Virus record (IMG/VR): IMGVR_UViG_2531839666_000031
DNA length: 12,562 nucleotides
DNA from: a virus
Lineage: Duplodnaviria; Heunggongvirae; Uroviricota; Caudoviricetes
Reading direction: 5' to 3' (one strand)
Shown here: in pieces, positions 10,707 through 10,891 of the stretch
Position numbering within the stretch: position 1 is the stretch's first letter
Layout of the letters: each line of letters opens with the position of its first letter
The notes under the pieces: model-generated
What the model was told of the DNA's origin: nothing
What the model saw: the letters and a program-made list of their open reading frames with translations, nothing else
The model's database searches: none
Made by a program: the position numbers and the translations under genes

Positions 10707-10866
10707 TACGCGCGATCCTACCTTCACTGTATAAAAAGTCAATAAAATGATCATTTTATGATCGTTTTCACCACCTAAGTCTTCGTTTTCTTTAAGTAAA
10801 TAATCACCGCCCTGAATCATTGTTGATGACTTTTCAATCTATTTGTTGTATCAATTAAACAAATCG

Positions 10867-10891
10867 AATCGATCGTTTTTGTCGATCGATT
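10867..10891. promoter_or_regulatory. GATC-containing dyad immediately upstream of com (candidate Dam-methylation-sensitive site)
   Basis: AATCGATCG-tttttgt-CGATCGATT, 9-bp perfect inverted repeat with a GATC in each arm; three further GATC sites at 10714, 10749 and 10760. Confidence 0.35.

Follow-up and report, generated by a model that had tools for sequence, protein, structure and literature searches.

A conserved GATC dyad upstream of com–mom in an Escherichia coli Mu-like prophage as a candidate Dam-sensitive OxyR operator

The com–mom locus and its prophage context

The stretch of DNA analysed here, 12,562 nucleotides in length and referred to below as the window, comes from a Mu-like prophage of E. 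coli and makes up its right-hand 12 kb. A prophage of the O157:H7 strain F7508 matches it at 99.4% identity, with the alignment ending at window position 11955, which is the end of the prophage. The region upstream of com was found at a coverage of at least 80% in 214 complete E. coli genomes, and the prophage family is common in O157 and other STEC. The main features of the locus are as follows.

10927–11136, plus strand: com, zinc-ribbon translational activator of mom (Pfam Zn_ribbon_Com, E = 6e-11)
11090–11827, plus strand: mom, DNA adenine modification enzyme, overlapping the 3' end of com (Pfam Mom, E = 4.5e-77)
10919–10924, plus strand: Shine-Dalgarno sequence of com, AGGAGG, by direct reading of the sequence
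10867–10891, no strand assigned: palindromic operator (predicted), AATCGATCG-TTTTTGT-CGATCGATT, with arms at 10867–10875 and 10883–10891 and a 7-nt spacer
10820–10363, minus strand: divergent ORF, annotated in RefSeq as a frameshifted pseudogene in three genomes
7675–10324: cargo trio between gin and com, comprising a sialate O-acetylesterase (SASA) fused to DUF6645, DUF1378 and DUF826

Mom protects phage DNA against many restriction enzymes, and its expression at the wrong time is toxic. The layered control of mom in Mu is a textbook case of Dam methylation as a regulatory signal. Mu carries the same com–mom operon in the same place, at the right end of a Mu-like genome. The coding DNA of mom is ≈71% identical between Mu and the window, and the protein is 79% identical to Mu Mom. 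In the window, a 3.2-kb stretch (7576–10826) made up of the esterase/DUF cargo and the divergent pseudogene separates gin from com, so that the predicted operator no longer overlaps the end of gin. The SASA-DUF6645/DUF1378/DUF826 trio is one that we take to be associated with lambdoid/Stx prophages. Elsewhere, the segment at 10330–10830 was found in two Stx phages only, in copies of the same Mu-like element inserted there.

Two further observations concern this part of the prophage. A perfect 12-bp stem with a 6-nt loop (AGGTCCAGATAG...CTATCTGGACCT) lies at 10636–10665, within the divergent pseudogene; read on the plus strand it resembles a terminator, with only a weakly T-rich tail. The tail-fibre, invertible-segment and cargo region (4213–10465) is a GATC desert, with three sites against ≈24 expected from base composition, while the first 4.2 kb of the window contains 25 GATC against 15.6 expected.

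Compared with its 99.4%-identical relative, the copy of the prophage in the window has frameshifting indels in gin and com. The gin gene (7014–7575), intact in F7508, is broken into two ORFs by a 1-base insertion (indel at 7312). In com, the ATG at 10927 is in frame only through an extra A at about 10943; all relatives start at the ATG at 10935 (MYRNIRC...). The run CGAAAAC (10942–10946) carries this extra A in the window and in none of the other family loci (59 of 59 lack it), and the base reflects a sequencing error or else a very recent mutation. Five more 1-base deletions occur in the first 1.6 kb, at 93, 107, 131, 137 and 1611. Most of the seven indels lie in or adjoin short runs of a single nucleotide, a pattern that points to sequencing errors or early decay.

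The GATC dyad and its conservation within the family

The preliminary description of this DNA had pointed to five GATC sites in about 175 bp upstream of com, two of them in a 9-bp dyad at 10867–10891, and had read them as consistent with Dam-dependent control of com–mom as in Mu. All five sites are present, starting at 10714, 10749, 10760, 10871 and 10884 and spanning 174 bp, and the dyad is a perfect inverted repeat. Its two GATCs occupy 10871–10874 and 10884–10887, 13 bp apart from start to start. This pair is more than chance: the 25-nt dyad pattern, allowing at most three mismatches, occurs once in the 41-kb prophage against an expectation of 0.02.

Within the family, the GATC pair and its spacer are invariant across 60 loci, which represent 17 variants in three unrelated upstream contexts. 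GATCGTTTTTGTCGATC and the block TTATTTGTTGTATCAATT are likewise unchanged in the 60 loci, whereas the 13 nt following the dyad vary freely. The conserved module starts at a −35-like hexamer, ATGACT (10826). To its left, three unrelated types of neighbour were found: that of the window, that of JE86 (21 loci) and that of L160.

Homology to the Mu mom operator

Promoter region I of Mu mom contains three GATC sites within its OxyR site, and its transcription depends on Dam. In Mu, mom is controlled by Dam, OxyR, C, Fis and Com (PMC3378877, PMC4461284). When the window was aligned with JE86, Mu, D108 and SfMu, the sole conserved non-coding block was AATCGATCG-N7-nGATCGATT. The Mu GATC sites II and III are the homologues of the dyad GATCs at 10871 and 10884, with a spacing of 13 bp in both. 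By contrast, nothing in the window corresponds to site I of Mu, a GATC located 18 bp before site II: the window has tgtATCAATTAAA there, and the site is likewise missing from several other lineages. The palindrome formed by the arms is a perfect 9 bp in the window and 8 bp in Mu, and the window reads CGATC where Mu has AGATC. The pair lies 56 and 43 bp from com in the window (64 and 51 bp when measured to the family ATG at 10935), compared to 91 and 78 bp in Mu, placing the window operator ≈25–35 bp closer to com. Between its operator and com, Mu has a C box (ATTAT..ATAACC) and a TAAGAT −10 hexamer. The window has neither, and no Mu-type ATTAT..ATAACC box was found in the 35 bp between dyad and com. 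The likeness to Mu in the preliminary description thus extends to the spacing of sites II and III, and not to site I, to a C-type activator box or to the distance from com. The promoter of the window is probably weak and non-canonical, as is that of Mu.

Distribution beyond the family

Of 80 viral contigs, 60 contained the pattern GATC-N9-GATC in the 420 nt before mom, and these represented more than 12 distinct contexts. The pattern also precedes mom in Edwardsiella, Symbiopectobacterium, Pantoea persica, Sodalis and Apirhabdus. In control sequence outside the upstream zones it occurred twice in 186,630 nt. Judged from these comparisons, the conservation across lineages, together with the near absence from control sequence, cannot be attributed to chance. 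Of the 20 viral-contig loci that lack the pair, most retain sites I and II, with site III reading CATC.

No GATC pair was found at the mom loci of Neptunomonas, Endobugula, Parathalassolituus, Desulfovibrio and an Oceanospirillaceae MAG. The lineages of these hosts outside the Enterobacterales (Neptunomonas, Desulfovibrio and others) are not known to have Dam. The com upstream regions outside the Enterobacterales (L017, at about 2740–2860, and L019, L020, L026, L113 and L114) also lack the pair. These regions contain instead a conserved, structured-looking element, with CACAGTG..CACTGTG, AGGCTCCC... and, directly before com, GCCTATCA; it matched no Rfam family and may be a different leader or regulatory element.

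Among mom genes that are not preceded by com, those of Yersinia and Serratia have no GATC pair, and in the related Aeromonas phage pAEv1818 mom follows an antiterminator Q gene, in a lambdoid-type context. At five other com-less loci (L101, L104, L106, L107 and L015), the pair (GATCTGTTAAATCGATC) lies 39–49 nt before the start of the tblastn match to mom. Since these com-less loci carry the pair, the operator is tied to mom even without the Com layer.

The same operator, in inverted orientation, was found in a P2-type com–methyltransferase module of E. coli (L004, 2912–2945), in which the cargo enzyme is a methyltransferase rather than Mom. By inspection, CGATCGATAAAAACGATCGATT of L004 agrees with the reverse-complemented window dyad in 21 of 22 positions. 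The L004 pair is placed at −64 and −51 relative to com, just as in the window family when the distance is taken to the ATG at 10935. Unlike the window, L004 has a third GATC at −82, 18 bp further up, and its pair is followed after 7 nt by a good −10 hexamer, TATCAT. From these sequences, the operator appears to travel with com cassettes whatever their modification enzyme. The L004 spacer is the reverse complement of the window spacer.

Match to the OxyR consensus and comparison with agn43 and gtr

OxyR sites were scored against the half-site consensus ATAGxTxxxAxCTAT (PMC2909390), which has 10 specified positions per half-site and 20 for a full site. Three matches lie before com.

10872–10886, no strand assigned: predicted OxyR dimer half-site, ATCG-N7-CGAT, matching 7 of 10 consensus positions, with both Dam target adenines inside
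10850–10864, no strand assigned: candidate second OxyR half-site, ATCAATTAAACAAAT, matching 6 of 10 positions, its centre 22 bp from that of the first
10819–10855, no strand assigned: GATC-free OxyR-consensus match, 14 of 20, the best of the window; 12 of 20 in JE86-type relatives

The same 7 of 10 is reached by Mu, by agn43 and by almost all other lineages in the register of 10872–10886, and an ATCAAT(T/A)A motif recurs upstream of the GATC pair in most lineages. The full candidate site (10850–10886) scored 13 of 20, compared to 13, 14 and 13 at the proven sites of Mu mom, agn43 and gtr, respectively, although the scoring is crude, and the consensus is AT-rich, as is the region. With the GATC pair fixed and random AT-rich flanks, a score of at least 13 had P = 0.8%. 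The top matches of the window all lie in 10819–10886, with 14 at 10819 and 13 at 10837, 10841 and 10850. Local shuffles reached a maximum of at least 14 in 22 of 5000 cases and at least three sites scoring at least 13 in none of 5000. The GATC-free match at 10819–10855 is possibly an alternative OxyR position, insensitive to methylation.

A close likeness was found to the operator of agn43 (flu) of E. coli, TATCGATCG-TTTATAT-CGATCGATA, which has the same 13-bp GATC spacing. Both 8-bp arms (ATCGATCG-N7-CGATCGAT) are identical to those of the window, and five of the seven spacer bases match. The agn43 operator has a third GATC 19 bp upstream, and thus three GATCs where the window has two. Methylation of the operator GATCs of agn43 abrogates OxyR binding (PMC2909390). 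P22 gtr contains TTGATCG-N7-CGATCAA twice, again with GATCs 13 bp apart. The P22 gtr pairs, at −110/−97 and −46/−33, each lie inside one OxyR dimer half-site, and their methylation abolishes OxyR binding (PMC2909390). The pair at −46 and −33 overlaps the core promoter. The gtr system of P22 and Salmonella, which switches ON and OFF, uses two GATC pairs and three defined half-sites, whereas the window has one pair; the extra GATC-free OxyR-like half-sites at 10819–10855, partly conserved in the family, could nevertheless permit alternative OxyR positions.

The dyad at 10867–10891 is, with a probability that we put at about 0.7, the core of a Dam-sensitive OxyR operator before com–mom, homologous to that of Mu. 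The claim of Dam-dependent control as in Mu is supported for the dyad, by the homology to Mu sites II and III, the agn43/gtr-type half-site and the strict conservation, and falls away for the five-site cluster, three sites of which lie in a pseudogene outside the conserved module (see below).

Promoter, layout and late activator

A search for σ70 promoters was made on both strands with a promoter-prediction tool and with an approximate position weight matrix (PWM) made for this analysis. No promoter above background was found near com on either strand, the best PWM score being 4.8 against a background median of 5.05. The strong σ70 promoter of agn43 scored 12.0 by comparison, whereas the C-dependent Pmom of Mu scored 4.1 and was equally invisible. 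With no candidate above background, and with the C-dependent Mu promoter likewise invisible, the com–mom promoter is probably weak and activator-dependent. Two features bear on its position.

10826–10854, plus strand: weak candidate promoter, ATGACT-17 nt-TATCAA (ATGACA in JE86-type relatives), inferred; its elements are invariant in the family
10892–10905, plus strand: hypervariable segment directly past the operator, at the offset of the −10 hexamer of other short-layout lineages

The candidate at 10826–10854 had a PWM score of 3.7 (5.0 in JE86), below the background median. A promoter there would place the operator at about +6 to +30. In agn43, too, the operator presumably lies downstream of its promoter, which is constitutive, so that the choice between ON and OFF falls to OxyR.

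Across lineages, the region before com takes two forms. In the long layout (Mu, Apirhabdus, L063, L072 and L109), the GATC pair is followed by the C box (ATTAT..ATAACC) and then by a TAAGAT-like −10 hexamer, and the pair lies ≈91 bp from com. In the short layout (the window family, Edwardsiella, L060–62 and the P2-type module), the pair lies 56–67 bp from com. Short-layout lineages have a −10 hexamer (TATCAT, TATACT, TATAGT or TGATAGATT) 7–9 nt past the pair, so placed that OxyR on the pair would cover the −35/spacer region. At this offset the window family has a degenerate TGAGAA (10895–10900; TGATAA in JE86). Being ≈25–35 bp nearer to com than its Mu counterpart, the operator probably overlaps the −35/spacer or early transcribed region of the promoter, rather than being placed ahead of an activator site. 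With neither promoter candidate above background and the sequence at the −10 offset degenerate and hypervariable, the operon may be poorly expressed or decaying.

The prophage encodes a C-like protein (12201–12626 of L008, the F7508 locus) with 39% identity to Mu C. A box, TCCGCAAAnCCnGCC-N16-TAnGCT, found upstream of lys and I, that is, upstream of the lysis genes and the head protease, is a candidate late-promoter box; it occurs at 12630–12644 and 20548–20562 of L008, and possibly at 29883–29897. A search for it gave matches at lys, at I and perhaps inside N. The TCCGCAAAnCCnGCC box differs from the ATAACC box of Mu, yet a TCCCGCA-like core is common to both. No match to the lys/I box with at most three mismatches was found near com, and a Mu-type coupling of com–mom to the late activator is therefore not evident. 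A CCTGAA at 10811, at a lys/I-like distance from a −10-like hexamer, was considered and set aside as coincidental, with only six nt shared and no conservation in JE86. A long inverted repeat (10811–10833/10899–10921) was likewise rejected as a leader structure, as its left arm is not conserved in JE86-type relatives.

The dyad might instead be the operator of a regulator other than OxyR, such as a C/Mor-type late activator of the prophage or some other phage or host protein, with the GATCs merely part of a palindromic recognition sequence. In this family its position, about −25 to −50 from a downstream start, roughly corresponds to that of the C site in Mu, no other activator site is recognisable before com, and a C-like protein only 39% identical to Mu C could differ in specificity. 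However, Mu, D108 and SfMu keep the same dyad while C binds a different, adjacent sequence. The dyad is also kept in the P2-type module, where an ogr/Delta-like gene lies just upstream in L004, and in com-less mom loci, and its arms do not differ from those of the chromosomal OxyR operator of agn43. Moreover, the box common to the lys and I promoters is of quite another sequence, and the prophage has only one copy of the dyad. The late activator of the L004 module would presumably be of the Ogr type rather than C. A non-OxyR regulator is, in our estimation, unlikely.

The upstream GATC sites and further readings of the dyad

The five GATC sites could work jointly as one long region that senses Dam, divided into a distal and a proximal group like those of pap or gtr. 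The 174 bp hold five sites next to a strongly GATC-depleted region upstream, as many were matched within 10600–10926 in only 110 of 5000 local shuffles (2.2%), and GATCGTTTT is repeated at 10760 and 10871. On the scale of the window, however, the scan statistic was not significant. Five GATCs within 175 bp were reached in 213 of 2000 dinucleotide-preserving shuffles of the whole window, which contains 37 GATC against 45.7 expected, and the two sites of the 106-bp intergenic stretch were equalled in 835 of 5000 shuffles. The cluster is no more than chance. Furthermore, the three upstream sites (10714, 10749 and 10760) lie inside the divergent frameshifted pseudogene, outside the conserved regulatory module, and no OxyR-consensus match of at least 12 starts between 9445 and 10818, leaving all three uncovered. 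JE86-type and L160-type relatives keep the dyad without them, because similarity to these relatives begins only at about 10800–10826, and the site at 10714 is lost even in two window-type variants. We consider joint action of the five sites very improbable; by their sequence context, the upstream three are bystanders and no part of the operator device.

Equally improbable is a role of the dyad as RNA, whether it folds into a hairpin of the com leader or terminates leftward (minus-strand) transcription intrinsically. In favour of such a role, the minus-strand hairpin runs into CGATTTGTTT and was called terminator-like, and a transcription start at about 10861 would put the dyad in the 5' UTR. 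The plus strand, however, lacks a T-run, and Mu and other lineages keep the GATC pair with spacers or arms that are non-complementary and without a T-run. What is conserved is GATC-N9-GATC rather than the potential for base pairing, as seen from AGATC in Mu against CGATC in the window. The leader fold is also not unusually stable (z = −1.5), and the leader has no match in Rfam. That the dyad is functionless, a chance coincidence of GATCs and an AT-rich palindrome in decaying prophage DNA, would fit the five-site count, the frameshifts of this copy and its degenerate-looking −10 region, but is scarcely credible for a pair conserved over many diverged lineages and nearly absent from control sequence.

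Proposed mechanism and implications

Each arm of the dyad has one GATC. If the dyad is an OxyR operator, the arms together would form one OxyR dimer site (ATCG-N7-CGAT), with the degenerate half-site 22 bp upstream (10850–10864) completing the tetramer site. With both GATCs unmethylated, or possibly hemimethylated, OxyR would bind and block the weak com–mom promoter. Dam methylation of both GATCs would prevent binding and leave the operon transcribable, upon which Com would enable translation of mom. We infer OxyR binding, its block by methylation, and repression from the sequence comparisons described above. A literature search for binding, methylation or expression data on this prophage, including methylomes, found none.

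In the window family and in the P2-type com–methyltransferase modules of the same layout, where the operator would lie on the core promoter with no visible box for a late activator, OxyR and Dam may be the main gate, acting as an epigenetic bistable switch like agn43 or gtr. We regard this as a doubtful extension of the Dam-sensitive operator, and we know of no phase variation of mom. If true, com–mom would be ON in a heritable subpopulation of lysogens, rather than being a strictly late lytic function, and the GATC-free OxyR-like sites at 10819–10855 would provide the alternative position for OxyR.

The Dam/OxyR mechanism is already known, and the window represents a variant layout in a new prophage family, so that the advance is incremental. 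Of the non-coding elements in com-led DNA-modification cassettes, the GATC pair with its 13-bp spacing is the most conserved. Its operator core spans many enterobacterial lineages, including a prophage present in hundreds of O157/STEC genomes and the P2-type methyltransferase module. This suggests that the host OxyR/Dam gate is the ancestral, indispensable layer of control, while the position of promoter and activator varies.

The GATC pair is also a simple signature by which prophage genes can be picked out as candidates for Dam/OxyR control. The exact dyad, ATCGATCG-N7-CGATCGAT, was found at 34 viral-contig loci with no mom nearby (L121, L126, L139, L140, L156, L167 and others), whose neighbouring genes would be candidates for such control. 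Several of these loci have a third GATC 18–19 bp away, forming an agn43-like triple.
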